Source of the DNA: an uncultured Candidatus Saccharibacteria bacterium
GTDB taxonomy: Bacteria; Patescibacteriota; Minisyncoccia; Phycocordibacterales; UBA9973
Direction of reading: 5' to 3'
Length of the DNA stretch: 64,000 nucleotides
Assembly (NCBI GenBank): GCA_964456475.1
Contig: CAYVZI010000003.1
Span: 14,092 to 78,091 of the forward strand
Each line of letters opens with the position of its first letter. Position 1 is the first letter of the stretch. A program made the translations under genes and the position numbers. The notes below the pieces were generated by a model that saw nothing but the letters and a program-made list of their open reading frames with translations, was not told where the DNA came from and did not search any database. Shown in pieces: positions 16,622 through 54,963 of the stretch.

Positions 16622-17179
16622 ATGCTCTACACCAGAAAAGGCGACGGAGGAACAACTAAAACATTCGGCTGCGATCAGCGAGTTTCAAAAAGCTCGGCTA
16701 TCGCTGAGGCGCTCGGCTCTCTCGACGAAATCAATTCGTTTCTTGGTCTTTTGAAGTTGAAATCAGGTGATGCTGTTTGGGAATTGCCAGAAGAGAAGTT
16801 GGCAGTCGCCGAAACAGTCAATCGCATTCAACAAGACCTCTTCATTGTGCAGGCCGAGCTCGCTGGCGCAGAGAAAACGATTGTCGAAGACAAGGTCAAA
16901 TGGCTCGAATCTATCATTGATGGTATCGAAAAGACACTTCCGCCCATCACCACATTCTTCGTCTCCGGTGGTACCGAGCTCGCCGCACTTTCTGATGTCT
17001 GTCGCACGATTGTACGCCGTGCAGAACGTCGTGTGGTCGCCGTACACGAAGAGGCGACTCGTCCAGTAGGTGAATTCACTCGTGCTTATCTCAACCGCCT
17101 CTCAAGCGTCTTTTACGCCTTTGCTCGTGAGGCAAATCATGTGGCTGGTGTTGCTGAACAATCTCCGAAATACGAATAA
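16622..17179 (+). CDS. PduO-type ATP:cob(I)alamin adenosyltransferase
   Basis: N-terminus YTRKGDGGTTKTFGCDQRVSK matches the PduO/MMAB signature. Confidence 0.75.
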   Translation: MLYTRKGDGGTTKTFGCDQRVSKSSAIAEALGSLDEINSFLGLLKLKSGDAVWELPEEKLAVAETVNRIQQDLFIVQAELAGAEKTIVEDKVKWLESIIDGIEKTLPPITTFFVSGGTELAALSDVCRTIVRRAERRVVAVHEEATRPVGEFTRAYLNRLSSVFYAFAREANHVAGVAEQSPKYE

Positions 17180-17189
17180 TTAGCATTGG

Positions 17190-17258
17190 GTCATTCCAAA
17201 CTTGATTTGGAATCCAGGCTTAATAGTAATGGATTCCGGATCGGAGTCCGGAATGACA
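17190..17258. repeat. MITE-like element: two inverted hairpin modules (GTCATTCC-arm-loop-arm-GGAATCCAGG, then GGATTCCGGA-loop-TCCGGAATGACA)
   Basis: Family members at 19141-19304, 36190-36220, 38781-38809 and 44615-44690. Confidence 0.7.
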
Positions 17259-17693
17259 AAACAAATGGAAATTCTTCAATTCGGAACAAAAGAGCCTGGT
17301 GTGGAATATAAAGACCGACCGGGAACATACGCGCTTATTCTTAATGAGAACGGGTTATTTTGTGCAACAGAAAATTCTTGGGGAAAATATAGTTTGCCTG
17401 GTGGAGGAACTGACGAAGGTGAAAGTGACGAGGTGGCTCTTCGTCGAGAAATTCAGGAAGAACTTATACGAGATATTGAGTTGTTCCAGTTTGTCGGTGA
17501 AGCAAAGCAATTTGTGCGCAGTAAGAAAAATGGTGATGTAAACAAACATTGTAAATACTTTATTGTCTCACTTGCGCCGGGTGAAGATGGGCAAGGGGAT
17601 GTAATCACTCGCTGGGTCAACCTCGAGCAATTCAAAGAGAAGTCATACCAGGAAGCACATGTTTGGGCACTTGAAAAATTTTTACTGAAATAA
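17253..17693 (+). CDS. NUDIX hydrolase
   Basis: Nudix box GGGTDEGESDEVALRREIQEELI. Start moved past the repeat element. Confidence 0.7.
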   Translation: MTKQMEILQFGTKEPGVEYKDRPGTYALILNENGLFCATENSWGKYSLPGGGTDEGESDEVALRREIQEELIRDIELFQFVGEAKQFVRSKKNGDVNKHCKYFIVSLAPGEDGQGDVITRWVNLEQFKEKSYQEAHVWALEKFLLK

Positions 17694-17696
17694 TTT

Positions 17697-18329
17697 ATGA
17701 AAAAAATCTATTTTGTCCGTCATGGAGAAAGTGAAGGGAATATTGGTCCAGTGCAACAGGATCACACGTCACCCCTTACTCAAAAAGGGAAGGAACAGGC
17801 TCACTCTGTAGCGAAGCGACTTGCTGGTGTTTCTGTCGGAGTTATTGTTTCGAGCAATATGCTCCGTGCAAAAGAAACAGCAGAGGTGGTTGCTGGTGTG
17901 ACGAATGCTCCTGTCGAACATTCAGATTTTTTTGCTGAGCGCAGAAAGCCCTCGCTTATGTATGGTAAGTCGAAAGACGATACTGAATCGGTTGATGCGT
18001 ATAAAACGGTGGTCGCTAATTTTCATTTGCCTGGATTTCGTCATTCTGACGAAGAAAATTTCGATGATTTGAAAGATCGCGCAAAAAATGCGATGGCATA
18101 TCTCGCAAGTCGTCCAGAAGAAACCATTGTCGTTGTCACTCACGGATATTTTATGCGAATCATTATGGCGTACGCATTATTTGGAGATTCTCTTACTGGG
18201 GAAGAGTGCTCGCGTTGTGCACGATTTTTTCATATGGAAAATACAGGAATCACAATTTTGGAACATACGGAGAAAAAAGAAAATCCATGGTGGCTATGGG
18301 TGTGGAATGACCATGTACATTTAACCTAA
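17697..18329 (+). CDS. Histidine phosphatase (phosphoglycerate mutase superfamily). Could be CobC-like alpha-ribazole phosphatase, from context.
   Basis: YFVRHGESEGN RHG motif and a downstream VVTHGYFMR His motif. Confidence 0.65.
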   Translation: MKKIYFVRHGESEGNIGPVQQDHTSPLTQKGKEQAHSVAKRLAGVSVGVIVSSNMLRAKETAEVVAGVTNAPVEHSDFFAERRKPSLMYGKSKDDTESVDAYKTVVANFHLPGFRHSDEENFDDLKDRAKNAMAYLASRPEETIVVVTHGYFMRIIMAYALFGDSLTGEECSRCARFFHMENTGITILEHTEKKENPWWLWVWNDHVHLT

Positions 18330-18424
18330 ATTATATTTTGCTTCGAAAATAACCTTACAAAACAAGGTTATTTTTGATTGACAAATTAGTCATTGTTTGA
18401 TATAATACCGACAAATTTCCTCAT

Positions 18425-18862
18425 ATGAAAAACACATTAGAAAAGAAATATTTTTACTATTCTGCTAAAGCCTGGCAGCTGATGAGTCTTGCACTCTTTT
18501 TTGTTACACTTCGAATGATATGTATCGAAATGTCCGCAGTTGTAATAGGTAATACTGTTGCTATCTTTGCTTTTGCCTCGGGTATTATGTTGCCACTGTT
18601 GTCTGCTTCAGCACTTTGTCCACCAGAAAATAATAAAAAAAATAATGGTGGAAATAGTCGAGTGTACACGTTTAGTATGGCATTGTTTATTATGACAATA
18701 ATGTTCTCGGGTATTATGTTGAGTAACATCGGATTTGTGGTTCAATCGTACAAACAATCAGCTCTCGGATGGGCCGTTGCATTATTTATTCTTTTTTTAG
18801 TTGAATCAACATTAATTCGCAGGTGGAAACGTAGATATGGACAGGAACTAAAAAATGCATGA
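18425..18862 (+). CDS. Hypothetical membrane protein
   Basis: Four hydrophobic segments. No recognised family. Confidence 0.4.
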   Translation: MKNTLEKKYFYYSAKAWQLMSLALFFVTLRMICIEMSAVVIGNTVAIFAFASGIMLPLLSASALCPPENNKKNNGGNSRVYTFSMALFIMTIMFSGIMLSNIGFVVQSYKQSALGWAVALFILFLVESTLIRRWKRRYGQELKNA

Positions 18863-18870
18863 ACAAAATT

Positions 18871-18905
18871 TGAAAATGCCCATGTAAATGGGCATTTTTT
18901 TATCC
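18871..18905 (+). terminator. Rho-independent terminator
   Basis: AAAATGCCCAT-GTAA-ATGGGCATTTTTTT. Confidence 0.75.
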
Positions 18906-19140
18906 CCATTTGCGTAAAAATGGGGGAGGTGTAGAATACGTGGGCAGTTGAAAAAGAAATAACATTTGTGTTTGGGGAAGTGAGGTGAAAATCCTCCACA
19001 GTGCCGCTACGGTGATCCAAGAATTTACTTGGGAAGTCCGATTACCAATCACGAATAGGTGCGTCCCGAGCAGGAAAATGAGTATGCGAATGTGTACCCA
19101 GATATAGACTCCTCGGCGGGAGTTTTTTTGTGCTCGTATT

Positions 19141-37811: not shown

Positions 37812-38345
37812 ATGGAAATATTAGATATCGTAAACGAAAACGACGAAGTAATCGGACAAGAAGACCGAAAGGTTATTCACCAGGAAGGATTATTACATCG
37901 TGAAATTCATGTATGGCTTGTTACACCTGACGGCAAAATAATTTTTCAAAAACGAGGAATGCATAAAGATACATATCCAGGACTTTTAGATGCAACAGTT
38001 GGTGGCCATGTTGACCTAGGTGAATCATATGAAGATGCTGCTCTCCGAGAAACACAGGAAGAAACCGGACTCAGTTTATATCAATCAGATTTAAAATTTA
38101 TTAAAAAAGAATTTTCAAAATCATTTGATTCTATTACCGGAATGAAGAATCATAAATTTAGCTCAATTTATACATATTTATTTCCAGATGACCTTGAAAA
38201 ACTTAAACTTGAAGATGCTGGAGCTTTAGGTTTTGAATCTTTTTCTATTGAAAAACTCAAAAACCTTTCAGACGAAGAAAAGAAAATGTTTATACCAAGA
38301 TTTCTTACCGAAGAATATTTAGAATTTTTTGAAACCATCGTATGA
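37812..38345 (+). CDS. NUDIX hydrolase
   Basis: Nudix box GGHVDLGESYEDAALRETQEETGL. Confidence 0.75.
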   Translation: MEILDIVNENDEVIGQEDRKVIHQEGLLHREIHVWLVTPDGKIIFQKRGMHKDTYPGLLDATVGGHVDLGESYEDAALRETQEETGLSLYQSDLKFIKKEFSKSFDSITGMKNHKFSSIYTYLFPDDLEKLKLEDAGALGFESFSIEKLKNLSDEEKKMFIPRFLTEEYLEFFETIV

Positions 38346-38764
38346 GGATTAAGATTAAAAAAATGAAAGATGGGGCGAAGTTGCCGACATATGCAAAACC
38401 GGGAGATGTGGGGATGGATATGTATGCGATGGAGACAGTGACGATTCCACCACAAGGGCATCATATTTTTTGGCATGGTTTTGCAATGGAATTCGATGAA
38501 GGATTCGCGGCGATTGTGAAAGACAAATCAAGTATTTCAAAAGCCGGATTGCATACAATGGGTGGAGTTTTCGATGCTGGATATCGTGGGGAATACAATA
38601 CTCATCTCGTAAATCTCTCTAGTGATCCATACACAGTGGAAGAGGGTGACAAAATAGCTCAACTCATCATCTATCCTGTGGTTATTGCAGAATTGGAGGA
38701 AACTGATACTCTGAGTGAGTCAGAACGTGGGGCAGGTGGCTTCGGCTCGACAGGCAAGAAATGA
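38342..38764 (+). CDS. dut: dUTP diphosphatase
   Basis: AKPGDVGMDMYA, GVFDAGYRGE and RGAGGFGSTG motifs. Confidence 0.9.
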   Translation: MRIKIKKMKDGAKLPTYAKPGDVGMDMYAMETVTIPPQGHHIFWHGFAMEFDEGFAAIVKDKSSISKAGLHTMGGVFDAGYRGEYNTHLVNLSSDPYTVEEGDKIAQLIIYPVVIAELEETDTLSESERGAGGFGSTGKK

Positions 38765-40530: not shown

Positions 40531-40939
40531 TCTAGGGAACAGGGAGAAGGGGTTAGGGAGTAGAAAAATAAAAAACCGACCCTCAATGTGAGAGTCGGCA
40601 AGTTAGAGAAAAGGCACACGTATAACCGCGTCTGCTGGCACGATGTTTAGACACCTTCTTTCGCGAGTAAATAACTAAAAGCCCGAAGAGCCATTAATCT
40701 AAAAATATACTCCTCCCACTTGAAAGTCAAATGAAATATGGTATTCTTTCAATAGAAGCGATGAAGGGGCTATCACCCTGGAGCTTGGGGAAGAACATCA
40801 GCTTTGGCTGGTCAGTAGAACCCTATAAATAAGCCCGAAGGAATACCAGAGGGGAAAGAAGGTGGTACCACGATTTCTTATATAAAAAAGAAACCCGTCC
40901 TTGCAATCATGACTTTTGTCGTGATGCGAGGACGGGTTT

Positions 40940-41161
40940 TTAACTTACTTCCTTTAAGTATCTTCTTGTTGTTTTTATGCCATCGTATATGAAAATTACT
41001 ATTGTAATTAAAAAACAAAATGGCCAAACGATACTTAGAAGAATCTTCAAATACCTAGGCATTTTTGGAAGTATTGTATATGTGCTACGAGCTGCAAGTA
41101 TATAAACAATTGCAAGAATAAAACACGCTAAAACCATAAGAAATTTTCTAATACTATACAC
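40940..41161 (-). CDS. Small hypothetical membrane protein (two TM segments)
   Basis: ORF, hydrophobic segments, terminator hairpin at 40888-40945. Confidence 0.35.
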   Translation of the reverse strand: MYSIRKFLMVLACFILAIVYILAARSTYTILPKMPRYLKILLSIVWPFCFLITIVIFIYDGIKTTRRYLKEVS

Positions 41162-41186
41162 CTTATTAATAATTTAGTCAAGTATC

Positions 41187-44100
41187 ATGGAAACACCTGA
41201 AAATAAACCTAAATCACCAGCTGCAGAGCGAGAAGAAAAAGTTCTCGGTTTTTGGAAGGAGAACAATGTCTTTGAAAAAACGCTCAAGAAAGATTCGCCC
41301 AAAGGTGAGTTTGTATTCTTCGAAGGTCCACCAACTGCGAACGGTAAGCCTGGTATCCACCACCTTGAAGCTCGTGCTTTCAAAGACGCGATTCCTCGCT
41401 ACAAAACAATGCAAGGATTCCATGTGCGCCGAAAAGGGGGATGGGATACACATGGACTTCCAGTGGAACTTCAAGTAGAAAAAGCACTCGGCCTCAATTC
41501 GAAAAAAGCGATTGAAGAATTCGGCATTGCGAAATTTAACGACAAGTGTAAAGAAAGCGTCTGGCAGTACACCGATCTTTGGGAAAAATTCACTGACCGT
41601 ATCGGTTATTGGGTGGATCAAAAAAATCCTTATGTGACCTATCACAACTCATACATTGAGTCTGTTTGGAATGTCTTGCAGAAGGTAAATGACCAAGGAC
41701 TTGTGTATAAAGATTATCGAATCGTGCCGTGGTGTCCACGCTGTGGAACAGCGCTTTCGTCGCATGAACTTGCACAAGGATATCAGGACGACCGTGACCT
41801 GTCGGTCACGGCCAAGTTTAAAGTTATAAAGTCGAAAGTTGAAAGTCTGGAAAATACGTACGTTCTTGCTTGGACTACGACGCCGTGGACTCTTCCGGGG
41901 AATGTCGCACTTGCGGTGGGGAATGATATTGATTATGTAAAAGTAAAAGTTGGTGAAGAATTTTTGATTCTCGCGGAAGCACGCATTAGCGTGCTTCCGG
42001 AGGGCTTTGAAATTGTAGAAAAAATAAAAGGGAGCGATCTTGTCGGTCTTGAATACGAACCACTTTATCCATATTTGAAAGACAATATTGCTGACTCACA
42101 AAAAGAAAAACTTGAAAAAGCTTTCAAAGTGTATCCAGCAGATTTCGTCACAACCACTGATGGAACAGGAGTTGTGCATACAGCGGTGATGTATGGAGCA
42201 GACGACTTTGAGCTTGGAACCAAGCTTGGTTTGCCGAAGCAACATATGGTAAATCTCGATGGAACGTTTGTTGAATACGCCGATTTTCTTGCGGGACGTT
42301 TTGTAAAAGATGAAGATGTAGCTGTTGATATCATCAAAGACCTCGCGCATCGCGGGCTCTTGTTCAAAAAAGAAAAGTACGAACACTCATATCCACACTG
42401 TTGGCGTTGTAAGACTCCACTCATCTACTACGCGCGAGATTCTTGGTATATCCGCATGAGTGATCCTAAAATCAAAGACCAACTCATCGAAGAAAACAAA
42501 AAAATAAATTGGGAACCATCGTATATCCGCGATGGGCGTTTTGGTGAATGGCTCAAAGATATCAAAGATTGGGCGATTTCTCGTGAACGATATTGGGGAA
42601 CACCACTTCCGATCTGGATGACCGAGAGTGGAAAAATCGAAGTGATTGGCTCACTCGACGAAATGAAAAAGAAGGCAAAGAAGTCTGGTAATACCTACCA
42701 TATCATTCGTCACGGCGAGGCTGATCACAATCTGAAAGGCATGGCGAGTGCCGACCCGAATGAGCCGGTACATCTCACCGAGCTTGGTCGCAAGCAAGTC
42801 GCCGGTCAGGTTTCTAAACTCAAAGAGGCTGGAATCGATCTCATTATTGCGTCACCATTCGTTCGAACACGCGAAACCGCAGACATCATTCGCGAAGGAC
42901 TCGGCGGACAAGTTGAGATACTTTTCGATGAACGTTTGCGAGAGATGGATATTGGAATTTATAACAAAGGTCCATGGAGTAAATACCATGAGGACTTTCC
43001 AAAGACGGTAGAGAATTTCTACAATGGCCCAGAAGGTGGGGAATCATACAATACGGTCAAAGGCTGGATGATGGATTTTATCCACGATGTGGAAATCAAA
43101 TTCCAGAATAGAAAAGTTCTTTTTGTGAGTCATGGCGGTCCATCCTGGCTTCTTATGGCTGGTATACAAGGATTCGGTGCAGAGGAATCGCTCAAGATGA
43201 TTGCGGACAAAAAAGATTTTCATTATTTTGAAAACGCAGAAGTGCGTGAAGTTCCGTATGTGCCATTTCCGCACAACCACAATTGGGAGCTTGATTTGCA
43301 TCGACCATATATTGATCATGTTGAGCTCGTCTCAGAAAATGGCGAGCCAATGAAGCGCGTAAACGAAGTGATGGACGTATGGTTTGACTCAGGGGCAATG
43401 CCGTTTGCGCAAGACCACTATCCATTTGCAACAAAAGATATCTTGTACCCCGCAGACTTCATTTGTGAAGCTATCGACCAGACGCGTGGATGGTTTTATA
43501 CACTCCACGCAGTTGGAATGCTCATGGGTCGTGGTCTCGCGTATAAGAATGTGGTGTGTCTCGGACATATTCTCGACGCAGAAGGGAAGAAGATGAGTAA
43601 GTCGCTTGGCAACATCGTCGACCCATGGGAGATGATTGAAAAGTACGGCGTAGACACGCTTCGTCTCTGGATGTACTCGGTCAATCAGCCAGGTGAATCA
43701 AAAAACTTCGACGAAAAAACAGTGGCCGAATTGCACAACAAAGTATTTAATTTGCTCTACAACGTTCTCGCATTTTATGAACTCTACCGTGATAAAGAAG
43801 TCGAAAGCTCAAAGCCTAAAGCTGAAAGCTCAAACATTCTCGATCAATGGGTTGTGGCTCGACTTAATCAACTGACAGCGACAGTGACGGAGAATCTCGA
43901 TAATTACAAACTCCTTGAACCAGTACGTGCACTTCGAGAATTCATCGACGACCTTTCCACCTGGTACGTGCGTCGCAGTCGCGACCGAATGAAGGACGGC
44001 GATGTTGAAGCAAAACAAACTTTGTATTTTGTGCTTACAACAATTGCAAAACTGATGGCGCCATTCGCGCCGTTTGCCGCCGAAGATATTTGGCTCCGAC

Positions 44101-44606
44101 TTGGCGGCACAAAGAGTGTGCATTTTGAAACTTGGCCAGAAAATGAGTTAAAAGTCGAAAGTCAAAAAGTCTTGGAAGAAATGCAGAAAGTTCGTGAAAT
44201 TGTGACGCTTGGAATGGAAGCACGACAGAAAGCAAAGTTTGCTGTGCGACAACCACTCGCACAGCTCAAAGCTAAAAACTTAAAGCTGAAAGACCAATAC
44301 TTGGAAATCATTCAAGATGAACTCAATGTAAAAAATGTCGTCGAAGATGAGTCGCTTGAAACTGAAGTGTGGCTTGATACAGAAATTACTCCAGAACTTA
44401 AACGCGAAGGGGAGTATCGTGAGCTTGTGCGTGCAATTCAAGACACTCGCAAGAAGCAAGGACTTACACCAAGTGACGTCATTACACTTACTCTTCCAGA
44501 AAATACCAAGGATACAGTCGTGGGTTTTGAAGATGATTTGAAAAAGACGGTGCTTGCCGAGAGTGTCACATTTGCCGGAAGTGAGATTGTAATTGAAAAA
44601 GTGTAA
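41187..44606 (+). CDS. ileS: Isoleucyl-tRNA synthetase carrying an inserted histidine-phosphatase-superfamily domain (about aa 504-720)
   Basis: IleRS N-terminus GPPTANGKPGIHH and GWDTHGLPVE, DWAISRERYWGTPLPIW, DVWFDSGAM, KMSKSLGN. Between the last two lie YHIIRHGEADHNLKG ... ASPFVRTRETADII ... VLFVSHGGPSWLL. Confidence 0.85.
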   Translation: METPENKPKSPAAEREEKVLGFWKENNVFEKTLKKDSPKGEFVFFEGPPTANGKPGIHHLEARAFKDAIPRYKTMQGFHVRRKGGWDTHGLPVELQVEKALGLNSKKAIEEFGIAKFNDKCKESVWQYTDLWEKFTDRIGYWVDQKNPYVTYHNSYIESVWNVLQKVNDQGLVYKDYRIVPWCPRCGTALSSHELAQGYQDDRDLSVTAKFKVIKSKVESLENTYVLAWTTTPWTLPGNVALAVGNDIDYVKVKVGEEFLILAEARISVLPEGFEIVEKIKGSDLVGLEYEPLYPYLKDNIADSQKEKLEKAFKVYPADFVTTTDGTGVVHTAVMYGADDFELGTKLGLPKQHMVNLDGTFVEYADFLAGRFVKDEDVAVDIIKDLAHRGLLFKKEKYEHSYPHCWRCKTPLIYYARDSWYIRMSDPKIKDQLIEENKKINWEPSYIRDGRFGEWLKDIKDWAISRERYWGTPLPIWMTESGKIEVIGSLDEMKKKAKKSGNTYHIIRHGEADHNLKGMASADPNEPVHLTELGRKQVAGQVSKLKEAGIDLIIASPFVRTRETADIIREGLGGQVEILFDERLREMDIGIYNKGPWSKYHEDFPKTVENFYNGPEGGESYNTVKGWMMDFIHDVEIKFQNRKVLFVSHGGPSWLLMAGIQGFGAEESLKMIADKKDFHYFENAEVREVPYVPFPHNHNWELDLHRPYIDHVELVSENGEPMKRVNEVMDVWFDSGAMPFAQDHYPFATKDILYPADFICEAIDQTRGWFYTLHAVGMLMGRGLAYKNVVCLGHILDAEGKKMSKSLGNIVDPWEMIEKYGVDTLRLWMYSVNQPGESKNFDEKTVAELHNKVFNLLYNVLAFYELYRDKEVESSKPKAESSNILDQWVVARLNQLTATVTENLDNYKLLEPVRALREFIDDLSTWYVRRSRDRMKDGDVEAKQTLYFVLTTIAKLMAPFAPFAAEDIWLRLGGTKSVHFETWPENELKVESQKVLEEMQKVREIVTLGMEARQKAKFAVRQPLAQLKAKNLKLKDQYLEIIQDELNVKNVVEDESLETEVWLDTEITPELKREGEYRELVRAIQDTRKKQGLTPSDVITLTLPENTKDTVVGFEDDLKKTVLAESVTFAGSEIVIEKV

Positions 44607-44697: not shown

Positions 44698-45207
44698 ATG
44701 ACAAATAAAAAACTTATCATCTTTGATTTTGACGGAGTGCTAATTCATACATCACTTTTACCCCAAAAACTTCACCGAACCATACCGGAGGAGATGAAAA
44801 TTCTCATTCGAGAACTGGACGCAAACTACTTGCTTGCGATTGTTTCTGCGAGTGAATATTCTACTATTTCCGATTTTCTTGAAACACAAAATATCAGGAA
44901 TTCTTTTGTGGGGATTCTCGGTGGCAATTCTAATGGAGAAAAGGCTGCAAAAATAGCACAGCTTTTAAGGGAATATGAAATTGCTCCTCAATATACAATT
45001 ATGATTACTGATACGACTGGCGATGTTCGTGAGGCTCGGGAATGTAGCGTTCAATCGATTGCAGTAACATGGGGATTTCATGACAGGGAGCGTCTTAGAC
45101 GGGCAGAACCAGCATTCTATGTAGATACAGTACAAGAACTCGAACACGTAATTGAAACGTATTTTCTAGAACCCAACGAGAATGTACCCATACCGGCGTC
45201 CTCTTGA
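44698..45207 (+). CDS. HAD-superfamily hydrolase
   Basis: Motif I IIFDFDGVL. Confidence 0.65.
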   Translation: MTNKKLIIFDFDGVLIHTSLLPQKLHRTIPEEMKILIRELDANYLLAIVSASEYSTISDFLETQNIRNSFVGILGGNSNGEKAAKIAQLLREYEIAPQYTIMITDTTGDVREARECSVQSIAVTWGFHDRERLRRAEPAFYVDTVQELEHVIETYFLEPNENVPIPASS

Positions 45208-45232
45208 GGGTAGACCCTAGTCCCTAGAACCT
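45208..45232. repeat. TAGG-type heptamer repeat GGGTAGACCCTAGTCCCTAGAACC. Its reverse complement shares GGTTCTAGGGACTAGG with 61247-61284.
   Basis: Read directly. It lies 14 nt upstream of the 45246 start. Confidence 0.6.
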
Positions 45233-45245
45233 TTATAATGATTAC

Positions 45246-45791
45246 ATGGAAGACATTGCTCATCGCACAAAAGAAGGTCAGGAAATTTTGAAAGACCATC
45301 TTGGCTACATTAAATTAGAGGCAGATGCCTTTTTGGGGGCGCTCAAGGGTTTTCGACGTGACCTCGCGTTGTCTGCAAGGGCGACTGGTGGAATGATTCA
45401 CGGAGAATTCAAGGAGACAGCTACAATCATTGCTGTTCCGCCATTGGTAGATGGTATGAGTTTTGCCGATCTTCGAGCAATGCTTCATATCTGTACAGAG
45501 GCGTTTTTTGGAAAAATCATTGTAGAATCAAGATCTGTACAAAAAGAAGAGATTGAGATTATTCACAAAAACGTGATGGATGTAGCTGATTTTGCTCGAA
45601 GATTGTACGAGACGATCAAGACTGCTGGATTTGAATTCGATGTATTTAATACTCAAAATCTGGAAGCAGAACACATTGAATGTAATATTCTTTTCAATCG
45701 TGATGCGCTGAATGTTGCTATGGAAATTTCTCGCGCGCTTGGTGAATACGCCGTGCGTCTCGATATTGATTTGATGGAAGCAAAAAAGTAA
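45246..45791 (+). CDS. Hypothetical protein
   Basis: ORF only. Confidence 0.4.
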   Translation: MEDIAHRTKEGQEILKDHLGYIKLEADAFLGALKGFRRDLALSARATGGMIHGEFKETATIIAVPPLVDGMSFADLRAMLHICTEAFFGKIIVESRSVQKEEIEIIHKNVMDVADFARRLYETIKTAGFEFDVFNTQNLEAEHIECNILFNRDALNVAMEISRALGEYAVRLDIDLMEAKK

Positions 45792-45795
45792 CTAT

Positions 45796-46410
45796 ATGAA
45801 AAAACAAGTTATCGTAATTCATGGAGGAGATTGTTTTGAGACAAAGGAAAAATACCTTTCTTTTTTGCGTAGTTTTGAGATTGACAGTCTTGATTATTTT
45901 TTTGGAACGAGCTGGAAGAGTACACTTCAACAAAATCTCGGAGAGGATTTTCAGGTGGTTGCCCCTCGCATGCCAAATCAATTTGATGCTCGCTATGAGG
46001 AATGGAAGATTTGGTTTGAAAAATTAATTACATTACTCAATAGTGAAGTTGTACTCGTAGGGCATTCGCTGGGAGGAACATTTCTTGCAAAATACCTTGC
46101 AGAAAACACGCTGAGTAAAAAGATAACAAGCCTTCACCTTGTCGCACCTATGTATGATGCCGAAGGAACGAATGATTCTATGTGTGATTTTGTGATGCCT
46201 CAAAACTTAGAAAAAATAACAAATCAGTGTTCATCTGTTTTTATTTATCAGAGTAGCGACGATGAAATTGTTCCACCTTTAAACGCCGAGAAATTTTTGA
46301 AAGCACTACCGGATGCGAAGTTGCTATCATTTTCTGATAGAGGTCATTTCAATCAAGAATCTTTTCCTGAAATTATTGAAAACATCAAAGTTCAAAAGCT
46401 TGAAAGCTAA
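45796..46410 (+). CDS. Alpha/beta-fold serine hydrolase (RBBP9/YdeN-like)
   Basis: VLVGHSLGG nucleophile elbow. About 200 aa. Confidence 0.55.
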   Translation: MKKQVIVIHGGDCFETKEKYLSFLRSFEIDSLDYFFGTSWKSTLQQNLGEDFQVVAPRMPNQFDARYEEWKIWFEKLITLLNSEVVLVGHSLGGTFLAKYLAENTLSKKITSLHLVAPMYDAEGTNDSMCDFVMPQNLEKITNQCSSVFIYQSSDDEIVPPLNAEKFLKALPDAKLLSFSDRGHFNQESFPEIIENIKVQKLES

Positions 46411-53523: not shown

Positions 53524-54963
53524 ATGAAGCCATTTTATATTACAACTACACTCCCGTACGTAAATGCCGACCTTCACATGGGGCATGCGCTTGAATTTGT
53601 GCGTGCCGATGTGATTGCTCGTTACAAAAAACTCAATGGGTTTGATGTATTTTTCAATACGGGTACTGATGAACATGGTATGAAGATATACGAGAAAGCG
53701 CAGTCTTTAGGAAAGACCCCGCAAGAGTTTGTGGACGAGAGTTTTGCCCGATTTACTGAATCCGTAAAAATTTTTGGCTTAGATGAAAGTATTCTCCATT
53801 ACGCTCGTACGACAGATGCTCGTCATGAATCTGCAGCGCAAGAGTTTTGGAAACGATGCGATCAAAATGGATATATTTACAAGAAGAACTATCAAGCAAA
53901 ATATTGTGTTGGTTGTGAGGAGGTAAAAACCGACTCAGATCTCGTTGGGGGAGAATGCCCTGTGCATCCAGGGAGACCACTTGAAATCATTGAAGAGGAA
54001 AATTACTTTTTTAAGTATTCGGCATTTACCGAAAAATTGCTTGCTTTTTATGATTCACACCCAAGCTTCGTCGTGCCAGATTTTCGCTATAACGAAATCA
54101 AAGCATTCGCAGGACGCGGGTTGGAGGATTTTTCAATTTCACGTCTGAAGAGCAAGATGCCATGGGGAATACCGGTACCAGGGGATGAGGCGCATGTGAT
54201 GTATGTTTGGTTTGATGCTTTAACCAATTATATTTCTACACTTGATTGGCCAAACGAAGGAGGAAATTTTGAAACGTATTGGAAAACTGGGACTCCGACT
54301 CAGTATTGTGGGAAGGACAATACTCGATTTCAGTCTGCAATGTGGCAGGCAATGCTCATGGCCGCAAATGTACCCAATTCCCATCAAATCGTAGTCAACG
54401 GCTTTGTCACAGCTGATGGCGGTGTACGTATGTCGAAGACTCTCGGTAATGGAGTCGATCCAAAAGATGTTGTGGCCGAGTATGGCACAGATGCAATGCG
54501 ATTCTTCTTGGCAAAGGAAATCTCGTCTTTTGAAGATAGTCCATTTACGATGGAGAGATTTAAGGCATCGTATAATGCGCATCTTGCAAACGGGTTGGGA
54601 AATCTCGCTTCGCGAATTCTTACGCTTTCAGAAAAATATCTCGTAGAATGTCCTCCATTACCCGAGCAATCAATTCCCCAAGAGTTTTTTGATACGCTTG
54701 AATTGTTTGATATTCAAAAGGCTACCGCTCTCATTTGGGAAAAAATCCAAGTGCTCGATCAGAAAATCCAAAAGACAGAACCTTTTAAGGTCGTAAAAGT
54801 GGATGAAGTAAAAGGAAAGGAACTCATTTCGGAAATGGTTCTTGATTTGTATACTATTGCGAGAATGCTCAATCCAATCATGCCTGAAACAAATGCAAAA
54901 TTGAAAGCGCTTATTAAAGCCAACAAAAAACCTGAGACTCCGCTCTTTATGCGTAAGGAATAA
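53524..54963 (+). CDS. metG: Methionyl-tRNA synthetase (short form)
   Basis: HMGH and RMSKTLGN motifs. Zn knuckle CVGCEE...CPVH. Confidence 0.92.
   Translation: MKPFYITTTLPYVNADLHMGHALEFVRADVIARYKKLNGFDVFFNTGTDEHGMKIYEKAQSLGKTPQEFVDESFARFTESVKIFGLDESILHYARTTDARHESAAQEFWKRCDQNGYIYKKNYQAKYCVGCEEVKTDSDLVGGECPVHPGRPLEIIEEENYFFKYSAFTEKLLAFYDSHPSFVVPDFRYNEIKAFAGRGLEDFSISRLKSKMPWGIPVPGDEAHVMYVWFDALTNYISTLDWPNEGGNFETYWKTGTPTQYCGKDNTRFQSAMWQAMLMAANVPNSHQIVVNGFVTADGGVRMSKTLGNGVDPKDVVAEYGTDAMRFFLAKEISSFEDSPFTMERFKASYNAHLANGLGNLASRILTLSEKYLVECPPLPEQSIPQEFFDTLELFDIQKATALIWEKIQVLDQKIQKTEPFKVVKVDEVKGKELISEMVLDLYTIARMLNPIMPETNAKLKALIKANKKPETPLFMRKE

Follow-up and report, generated by a model that had tools for sequence, protein, structure and literature searches.

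A histidine-phosphatase domain nested in the isoleucyl-tRNA synthetase of Patescibacteria

Aminoacyl-tRNA synthetases (aaRS) belong to the most thoroughly studied enzymes. To our knowledge, no catalytic domain other than the editing domains has been found nested within the class Ia core. A 64,000-nucleotide (nt) stretch of DNA from an uncultured Candidatus Saccharibacteria bacterium (contig CAYVZI010000003.1, positions 14,092 to 78,091; the whole stretch is called the window here, and all coordinates are counted from its first letter) raises the question of whether an enzyme of another kind can live there. A first-pass annotation, made from the letters alone, had read its ileS gene, for isoleucyl-tRNA synthetase (IleRS), as carrying a complete histidine-phosphatase fold in frame. 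We asked whether this domain is real, what kind of phosphatase it is predicted to be, how it is related to the synthetase that carries it, and what it might do there.

A phosphatase domain within IleRS

The gene and its parts are listed here; for the catalytic codons, conservation is given among the aligned nested proteins and then among nested and free-standing relatives together.

41187–44606, plus strand: ileS, type-2 isoleucyl-tRNA synthetase with nested phosphatase; 1139-amino-acid (aa) open reading frame (ORF); from TIGR00392, AlphaFold2 (AF2) and Foldseek
41187–42674, plus strand: IleRS N-terminal part, aa 1–496; first Rossmann half, GIHH, CP1, WAISRERYWG and the ascending hairpin arm
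42675–43283, plus strand: inserted phosphatase module, aa 497–699 (folded core aa 503–689), and its C-terminal linker of ~10 aa, VPFPHNHNWE; from PF00300, fixed junctions, AF2 and Foldseek
42708–42716, plus strand: codons of R508-H509-G510 (RHG motif); R 81/81, H 81/81, G 80/81; R and H 127/127 with free-standing relatives
42864–42866, plus strand: codon of R560 (second phosphate-binding Arg, in SPFVRTRET); 80/80; 127/127
42942–42944, plus strand: codon of E586 (predicted general acid/base); 79/80; 120/127
43131–43133, plus strand: codon of H649 (second catalytic His, in VSHGG); 80/80; 127/127
43284–44606, plus strand: IleRS C-terminal part, aa 700–1139; LDLHRPYID (descending hairpin arm), DVWFDSG, DQTRGWFY, KMSKS, anticodon-binding domain and type-2 C-terminal domain (PF19302)

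The host of the insert is a recognizable synthetase. The ORF and all the motifs first quoted from it are present in the translation, and the product scored 888.1 bits against the TIGR00392 equivalog (cut-off 621.4), with the type-2 MupA and MupB models next. Its class-I signature motifs are GIHH at aa 56–59 (41352–41363) and KMSKS at aa 802–806. Among nested homologues, position 1 of the HIGH motif is G in 77% and position 3 is H in 85%, KMSKS is conserved in 97–100%, and DQTRGWFY in 100%. The 2023 IleRS2 structure paper (PMC10485003) connects the GxHH variant of HIGH in IleRS2 with mupirocin hyper-resistance. The CP1 editing domain is present, with WTTTPWTLP at 229 and GTGVVHTAVMYGADD at 326, and is 98–100% conserved in the nested forms (T-rich peptide 98%, editing Asp 100%). 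Pfam matches at aa 886–1024 (PF08264) and aa 1026–1132 (PF19302) give the C-terminal half the type-2 organization. The full-length AF2 model, built on a 53-sequence alignment, had a predicted local distance difference test (pLDDT) of 92.4 and a predicted template-modelling score (pTM) of 0.86; in Foldseek the best structure matches of the product were IleRS2 and eukaryote-type enzymes, and the body of the model matched the IleRS enzymes of P. megaterium (PmIleRS2) and T. thermophilus (TtIleRS) with target-normalized template-modelling (TM) scores of 0.75–0.84. These features show ileS to encode what is predicted to be an intact, editing-competent type-2 IleRS. That it activates isoleucine and charges tRNA(Ile) we infer from the intact motifs, from synteny with ileS genes lacking the insert, and from an Ile T-box leader described below.

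Pfam splits the class-I core (PF00133) of this protein in two, at aa 19–501 and over a later stretch, by a match to PF00300 (His_Phos_1) at aa 505–671. The E-value of this match was 3e-31 when the full protein was searched and 1e-32 when the segment was searched by itself, and its 109–114 bits far exceeded the gathering threshold (GA) of 21.7. When the protein was aligned with P. megaterium IleRS2 (8c8w), about six chain residues lay opposite query residues 497–700, and the distance from WAISR to DSG was 275 aa, versus 73–94 aa in relatives without the insert. The alignment check named in the first-pass annotation therefore confirmed an insert with RHG and His motifs, which is not a normal IleRS segment; the extent first given, 42690–43320, was roughly right, with its 3′ end shifted by about 12 codons.

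The junctions of the insert are fixed. In almost all of 81 aligned nested proteins, 49–50 residues separate WAISR from RHG, and the insert ends in the same way, with a last strand NAEIRELxF leading through a linker of ~10 residues (VPLPHNENYE) into LDLHRPYID. Relatives without the insert have at this place a hairpin, CxxC-x4-(I/V)GSxxELxxKxxx-(D)LH(R/K)P(Y/F)ID-x6-CxC, which is a zinc knuckle. The phosphatase sits at the exact tip of this hairpin, between WAISRERYWG and DVWFDSG. Both cysteine pairs (CxxC...CxC) are retained in 42 of the 81 nested proteins; the remainder, including the window protein, are without both. A supposed conserved basic linker at the N-terminal junction was rejected, its sequence being that of the native IleRS hairpin. 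The hairpin that carries the insert projects from the second half of the Rossmann fold. Thus, an insertion into the catalytic core, as it was first worded, holds insofar as the module lies within the catalytic domain, but the insertion point is a surface hairpin tip outside the IleRS active site.

In the full-length AF2 model the insert forms a discrete alpha/beta domain with pLDDT of 90–97 except in the loop 671–680, and modelled alone it had a pLDDT of 93.1 and a pTM of 0.90. Foldseek matched this model to many members of the histidine-phosphatase superfamily with a probability of 1.00 and TM scores of ~0.75. PF00300, catalytic residues, AF2 and Foldseek agree on a complete in-frame histidine-phosphatase fold, as had been proposed. 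No residue of a branch-1 catalytic core is missing: the His nucleophile is accompanied by another His, by two Arg and by an acidic donor. Over 127 nested and free-standing sequences S556 and T564 are also near-invariant, as are G510 and E586, and conservation of this kind shows the predicted catalytic set (R508, H509, R560, E586 and H649) to be held in full under strong purifying selection. No other part of the protein evolves as fast as the insert, whose mean identity to the window protein is 0.40, versus 0.77 for the flanking core. Judged by its residues and predicted fold, it is a complete branch-1 histidine phosphatase, predicted to be catalytically competent and apparently active.

We then asked how common the architecture is. 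A scan of species-representative genomes returned 97 relatives, from which 80 loci were kept; the insert was nested in 79 of the 80, in nearly every case within a single unbroken ORF of 1130–1230 aa, so a survey of Patescibacteria IleRS, which had been suggested at the outset, found the insert widely. A query spanning the junction retrieved dozens of proteins combining PF00133 and PF00300, at 36–49% identity and from many Patescibacteria groups. The closest relative (L001) was 96% identical over this query, and the next ones carry the label Nomurabacteria, which places the window in an organism of the Paceibacteria/Nomurabacteria type. The same combination occurs in Wolfe-, Vogel- and Yonathbacteria, Peregrinibacteria/Peribacteraceae, Gracilibacteria and ‘Pacebacteria’; some of these proteins bear the Joint Genome Institute (JGI) automatic name ‘isoleucyl-tRNA synthetase/bisphosphoglycerate-dependent phosphoglycerate mutase’. 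An artefact of assembly or gene calling can be set aside almost with certainty. Identical in-frame junctions recur in 79 species-level genomes and 32 metagenome contigs of many projects, down to 38% identity, composition is continuous over both insert junctions (GC 0.42–0.50), and the full-length fold is confidently predicted. A chimeric contig, which had been named as the finding that would overturn the architecture, is already refuted by the same junctions in independent genomes.

Some irregular records accompany the nested form. In one relative (L172:73-3562) the nested ileS is broken inside the phosphatase: the first ORF stops after the first half of His_Phos_1 and the second begins 29 nt later in a different frame. 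A sequencing error, decay into a pseudogene and an IleRS that is split in nature are all conceivable causes. Since this frameshift lies within the insert, it gives no evidence that any lineage lacks the insert. Apparent split ileS genes, suggested by matches of <600 aa on long contigs, were rejected as fragmentary gene calls. Some contigs bear labels at odds with their Paceibacteria-type nested ileS: L072 is filed under Acidobacteriaceae, L076 under Burkholderiales, and many others are ‘uncultured Candidatus Saccharibacteria’ third-party annotation records, probably as a result of bin contamination or generic labelling.

Which phosphatase the insert represents was addressed with family models and fold searches. 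Against the phosphoglycerate mutase equivalogs NF038349, NF002901 and NF002339 the insert scored 79, 56 and 30 bits versus cut-offs of 225, 261 and 316, and the whole protein 75, 51 and 30; dPGM_arch, at 75 bits, was the top NCBIfam phosphatase-type match of the whole protein, and the insert came nowhere near the cut-off of the GpmB model. Scores were likewise below cut-off for the CobC alpha-ribazole phosphatase models (TIGR03162, 79 versus 162.9; NF011580, 50 versus 250), for PspA phosphoserine phosphatase (NF045917, 49 versus 350), for SixA (TIGR00249, 33.5 versus 74.5, with the N-terminal 74 residues alone matching) and, with the window protein, for the IleRS-with-GNAT model (NF040702, 354.6 versus 1999). 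The best sequence match of the insert in the Protein Data Bank was PspA 4IJ5 (E = 8e-11). Its fold neighbours, at TM ~0.75, were mycobacterial hydrolase 1, a riboflavin-pathway phosphatase, PspA, GpgP, PhoE and Rv3214, and mutases ranked lower than phosphatases (TM 0.53–0.58, target-normalized). On these scores, the insert is a predicted histidine phosphatase belonging to no characterized subfamily.

A near-obligate partner of ileS in two formats

An exhaustive profile-free search with the insert returned, beside embedded copies, many stand-alone proteins of 187–196 aa. Their boundaries match those of the insert, starting with M..NNKYF(I/L)LRHG and ending just after GE(L/F)RKLN. In five of six context look-ups the stand-alone gene lay between ArgRS and an ileS without the insert (931–984 aa), with a gene-call gap to ileS of −10 to +3 nt. 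The adjacent loci and the window have a common synteny of ArgRS, IleRS, RecO, DUF11 and a class-II aaRS. In a metagenome sample, an alignment of the free-standing family was scanned over contigs, and the best 80 loci were classed by tblastn as follows.

Adjacent, directly upstream of ileS: 41 of the best 80 loci
Within 1.5 kb of ileS: 2 of the best 80 loci
Nested in ileS: 32 of the best 80 loci
Too short to judge: 3 of the best 80 loci
Enough flank, ileS not found: 2 of the best 80 loci

The phosphatase was next to or inside ileS in 75 of the 77 informative loci. From the stop codon of the phosphatase to the start of ileS the median spacing was 4 nt, and 39 of 48 spacings fell between −11 and +10. 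A second phosphatase copy in the flanks was found in none of 110 nested loci. By these counts the family is, in Patescibacteria, a near-obligate ileS partner that takes one of two mutually exclusive formats. The free-standing gene is translationally coupled to, and immediately upstream of, an ileS without the insert, and the nested domain is descended from, or ancestral to, this coupled partner gene. No relic of an upstream phosphatase gene was found in the 656-nt ileS leader (best E = 0.026 over 18 aa).

The partner synthetases of the adjacent type comprise at least three divergent hairpin/motif subtypes, all above the ileS cut-off. One deeply divergent subtype (L083, L087, L096, L102, L107, L113 and others) has HYGH as its HIGH motif and DVGNPWLDAG for DVWFDSG and scores 756 bits on the ileS model; its KMSKS position appears to read EMHK(S/K), a reading that depends on the alignment. 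Three loci depart from the common arrangement: around the family members in L147 and L163, no ileS was found within flanks that extend 5 kb or more in both directions, and in L088 the phosphatase follows ArgRS and ileS is convergent on the opposite strand.

Nesting happened at three IleRS loops, with one to four copies (sites in aa of the window protein).

Site A, 496/700: zinc-hairpin tip, as in the window
Site B, ~750/756: between DVWFDSG and PADFI
Site C, ~868/882: after the KMSKS region, before the anticodon-binding domain

When every protein collected was sorted by its motifs, the site patterns numbered A 236, C 10, AA 6, BC 6, AC 2 and AB 1. Relatives with two to at least four domains are P0143, P0174, P0199, P0227, P0241, L169 and L170; in tandem at site A, P0241 carries two copies and P0143, which is truncated, no fewer than four. 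The Arg-His dyad is retained in all copies, some first copies having RHA, not RHG. A protein labelled Gracilibacteria uses site C, and the AA pattern occurs in Peregrinibacteria. Six near-identical members represent the B+C form (P0174), with contigs reaching 1.06 Mb, and the context of this form (PurA, DAHP synthase and SLH proteins, without ArgRS) is not Paceibacteria-like.

What the phosphatase may do at IleRS

We favour, with a probability of about 0.55, the reading that phosphatase and IleRS work together, the phosphatase on something that IleRS binds or delivers, because the partnership is kept in two genetic formats and has been re-invented at several loops. The divergent IleRS subtypes, the three loops and the expansion in copy number also suggest a functional link, and fusion of neighbours would be expected to give a terminal fusion, not repeated internal nesting. 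In the mechanism we propose, the protein would be two enzymes in one machine, of which the IleRS half would charge tRNA(Ile) as normal. In the phosphatase, attack of H509 on a phosphomonoester would give a phospho-histidine intermediate. R508, R560 and H649 would grip the phosphate, E586 would serve as acid/base, and water would then free the phosphate.

The charge of the family offers a hint as to the substrate. Free-standing members have a median isoelectric point of 9.8 and carry +8.4 charges per 100 aa, versus +1.4 for their own IleRS at equal locus GC. An ancestral family charge of about +16 favours a phosphate borne by tRNA, RNA or a nucleotide, and we tentatively put forward, as the most likely though speculative substrate class, a phosphate on tRNA(Ile), other RNA or a nucleotide, for example a 2′/3′-phosphorylated acceptor end, which would stand in the way of aminoacylation. 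A more specific proposal, which we hold still more loosely, is a built-in repair or licensing of the tRNA(Ile) end, in which the phosphatase would strip a 2′/3′-phosphate or other RNA-borne phosphomonoester and so enable charging. Sister lineages would then use a basic 190-aa subunit docked on IleRS, and the arrangement would have been invented repeatedly, at three loops. Among the substrates suggested at first, Ap4A and ppGpp are a poor fit to this chemistry, since in neither is the bond in question that of a phosphomonoester; a phosphorylated tRNA end may be a substrate. Libraries of defence systems, toxins and phages gave no informative match.

A number of observations weigh against a function in concert with IleRS. 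Twenty-five nested domains are as basic as the free forms (~+16), so charge was unchanged on fusion in these, and the idea that charge is lost on fusion proved only partly true; the large clade holding the window is acidic, with a net charge of about −5 to −6. The excess charge is dispersed across the fold and is modestly enriched on helix 36–52, the cap and the C-terminal strand. Every equivalog model was below its cut-off, so none points to a substrate, and small molecules, not RNA, are what all the characterized enzymes nearest to the insert in sequence and fold act on. The ArgRS-phosphatase-IleRS-RecO block is syntenic as a whole, and we know of no link of RecO to IleRS; adjacency alone could therefore be inertia, and proximity alone favours fusion of neighbours. 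Nested and adjacent forms are mixed in neighbour-joining trees, both for the IleRS core and for the phosphatase domain, and the internal branches are very short. A perfect split of nested from adjacent forms appeared in 0 of 50 bootstraps, so that these trees give no support to a single clean origin of the nested form and no count of the site-A events. Lastly, position 627 (43065–43067) is Trp in the window protein and L001–L003 only, where the family norm is Arg, conserved in 122/127 members (96%) and also in an unrelated CobC-like paralogue. Activity or substrate may have drifted in this lineage, and R627W may mean altered substrate binding or activity in the window's immediate relatives.

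The strongest competitor to a function in concert with IleRS, which we regard as possible though clearly less probable, is that the domain is an ordinary small-molecule phosphomonoesterase (broad as in PhoE, or acting on phospho-amino acids or sugar/glycerate phosphates) with no link to aminoacylation. Such a passenger would have stood next to ileS by ancestral gene order and been captured into permissive surface loops, where co-expression is guaranteed in a streamlined genome. The small-molecule chemistry of all its closest solved relatives, by sequence and by fold, agrees with this, as does the conservation of a wider synteny including RecO without functional logic; sites A, B and C are variable surface loops, and evolution faster than that of the IleRS body (0.40 versus 0.77) is expected for a loosely integrated domain. 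A passenger fits poorly, in contrast, with a family almost never found away from ileS (75/77 informative loci), with coupling that reaches overlapping stop and start codons, with three internal loops and up to four copies where an N-terminal fusion would be expected, with a net charge of +16, which metabolic phosphatases seldom have, and with an association that holds across divergent IleRS subtypes.

The other alternatives seem to us much weaker. A protein phosphatase in the style of SixA, PGAM5 or Sts-1, acting on phospho-His, -Ser, -Thr or -Tyr of IleRS or another translation factor, is improbable. HipA-type kinase toxins target aminoacyl-tRNA synthetases, and reversal of such an inactivation would be one example; the superfamily does include protein phosphatases, the SixA model matches weakly (30–33 bits), and tethering to a target would explain both nesting and mutual exclusivity. 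Yet the SixA score is far under 74.5, and proteins of the SixA type are shorter. Structurally the domain comes closest to small-molecule enzymes, the ileS neighbourhood has no conserved kinase gene, and the defence and toxin libraries yielded no match. We give very little credence to a cofactor-dependent phosphoglycerate mutase carrying out the glycolytic dPGM step: dPGM_arch is the best NCBIfam match among phosphatase models (75 bits) and the JGI name says as much, whereas all mutase equivalogs are far under cut-off, the domain is of the short ~190-aa form, and mutases rank under phosphatases in the fold search. A non-catalytic spacer or binding platform replacing the zinc knuckle is equally implausible. 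Half of the nested proteins, the window protein included, are without all four zinc ligands, and R627W in the window lineage would suit such a role, but the other half keep zinc ligands and insert together, the catalytic residues vary little or not at all over 127 sequences in a domain that is otherwise down to ~40% identity, and free-standing relatives with the same residues are predicted to be stand-alone enzymes.

These data place a second, unrelated hydrolase with predicted intact chemistry on IleRS over a large part of Patescibacteria. Its persistence, nested or coupled, suggests a selected and undescribed function tied to isoleucine charging, for which tRNA-end repair, nucleotide turnover at the synthetase and regulation are candidates. 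If the repair proposal were true, it would be a third catalytic function in aaRS beside synthesis and editing, widespread in Patescibacteria. A function of this kind would be a rare clue to the biology of uncultivated, host-dependent bacteria. Should the domain turn out to be a passenger, it would still show with unusual clarity how, in nature, a domain can come to be nested again and again in permissive loops of an essential enzyme.

Leader, neighbouring genes and known systems

The region upstream of ileS has these features.

40720–40941, plus strand: ileS leader with a promoter-like site (40720–40747) and an Ile-specific T-box; from sequence reading, Rfam and conservation
40770–40775: loop CUAUCA of the ultrashort Stem I hairpin GGGG-CUAUCA-CCCU; specifier AUC at 40772–40774, then A
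40861–40872, plus strand: T-box core GGUGGUACCACG; 39 related nested-type loci each have a single exact copy upstream of ileS, on the plus strand
40891–40941, plus strand: long terminator with a U-run

The leader has the hallmarks of a T-box: a specifier and purine in the loop, a conserved T-box sequence and an alternative terminator. The same pattern is found upstream of ileS in L001–L078, and in 40 aligned leaders the AUC+A loop is conserved with compensatory stem changes. By these signs, the leader is a predicted Ile-specific T-box of the transcription-attenuation type. It scored 25.8 bits against Rfam RF00230 (GA 93) because 76 Stem I model positions are replaced by 6 nt, and standard annotation would therefore miss it. 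In the literature searched we found nothing that links T-boxes with the candidate phyla radiation. Between the terminator and the ileS start, 40942–41186 (~245 nt, GC ~0.31) matches no recognized RNA family.

A cobalamin-salvage cluster (16622–19055) holds the other histidine phosphatase of the window.

16622–17179: PduO-type cob(I)alamin adenosyltransferase
17202–17693: NUDIX
17697–18329: free-standing His_Phos_1, PF00300 E = 2e-35
18965–19055: AdoCbl-II riboswitch, 38.3 bits versus GA 36.5

The first-pass annotation had pointed to this second phosphatase beside the nested one. It exists, but at 29% identity over 73 aa it is no functional relative of the insert and is probably a CobC-like alpha-ribazole phosphatase. 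A recent duplication of it as the source of the insert was rejected on the same low identity and on its place in a B12 cluster. No second ileS lies in the window. The stretch 53554–54639 (plus strand) has weak class-I synthetase similarity (E = 1e-7 to 4e-5) and is presumably another class-Ia aaRS gene. Flanking ArgRS-IleRS, 37812–38764 and 44698–46410 encode hydrolases of small size, namely NUDIX, dUTPase, a HAD-family hydrolase and an alpha/beta serine hydrolase, and a 181-aa ORF at 45246–45791 has no Pfam match.

No description of a nested-phosphatase IleRS was found in the full-text literature searched, a scope that leaves most subscription journals outside. Targeted reading of AARS Online and the TBDB preprint brought up none, and neither the 2023 IleRS2 structure paper (PMC10485003) nor a 2026 preprint on IleRS domain evolution was found to mention a phosphatase. 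The architecture thus appears to be undescribed, databases merely annotating it automatically. The initial statement that no aaRS like this had been described stands as far as this literature goes, with the qualification that such proteins are common in Patescibacteria and already carry automatic names.

How does the window protein compare with known systems? Compact branch-1 phosphatases share the fold and catalytic residues of the insert: PspA (4IJ5), PhoE (1H2E), GpgP (Rv2419c, 4QIH) and Rv3214 (2A6P), and likewise the riboflavin-pathway HFP (9MMH) and CobC (6NRU). The likeness extends to length (~190–210 aa) and to the lack of a mutase tail, at 22–26% identity. These are free-standing metabolic enzymes, whereas the family described here is nested in, or translationally coupled to, IleRS, and its free forms, unlike them, are exceptionally basic. 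The Rv2228c-type RNase H/acid phosphatase (NF005567) likewise joins a branch-1 phosphatase to a nucleic-acid enzyme, and it was the third-best phosphatase model for the insert (73–75 bits, far under its cut-off of 326); there the joint is a terminal fusion to RNase HI, in Actinobacteria, and here the domain is internal. The IleRS with an N-acetyltransferase domain (NF040702) is another curated case of IleRS plus an extra enzyme, which differs in both domain (GNAT) and architecture.

The type-2 IleRS of P. megaterium (8C8U/8C8W) and T. thermophilus (1ILE) belong to the same family as the window protein and have the same domain order (phmmer 795 bits), sharing the GxHH-type HIGH, KMSKS, CP1 editing and type-2 C-terminal domains. 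Solved IleRS structures have a short zinc-knuckle hairpin where the window protein carries a 200-aa enzyme domain. A second catalytic domain within the Rossmann fold has its precedent in the CP1 editing domain, which is nested in IleRS, ValRS and LeuRS, works in cis on the 3′ end of the tRNA and is present in the window protein as well. In contrast to CP1, which is universal, ancient and an aminoacyl-ester hydrolase, the phosphatase is lineage-restricted, sits in another loop, is predicted to use phosphomonoester chemistry and also occurs as a separate gene. The window protein is a member of none of the CP1, GNAT-IleRS and Rv2228c-type precedents.

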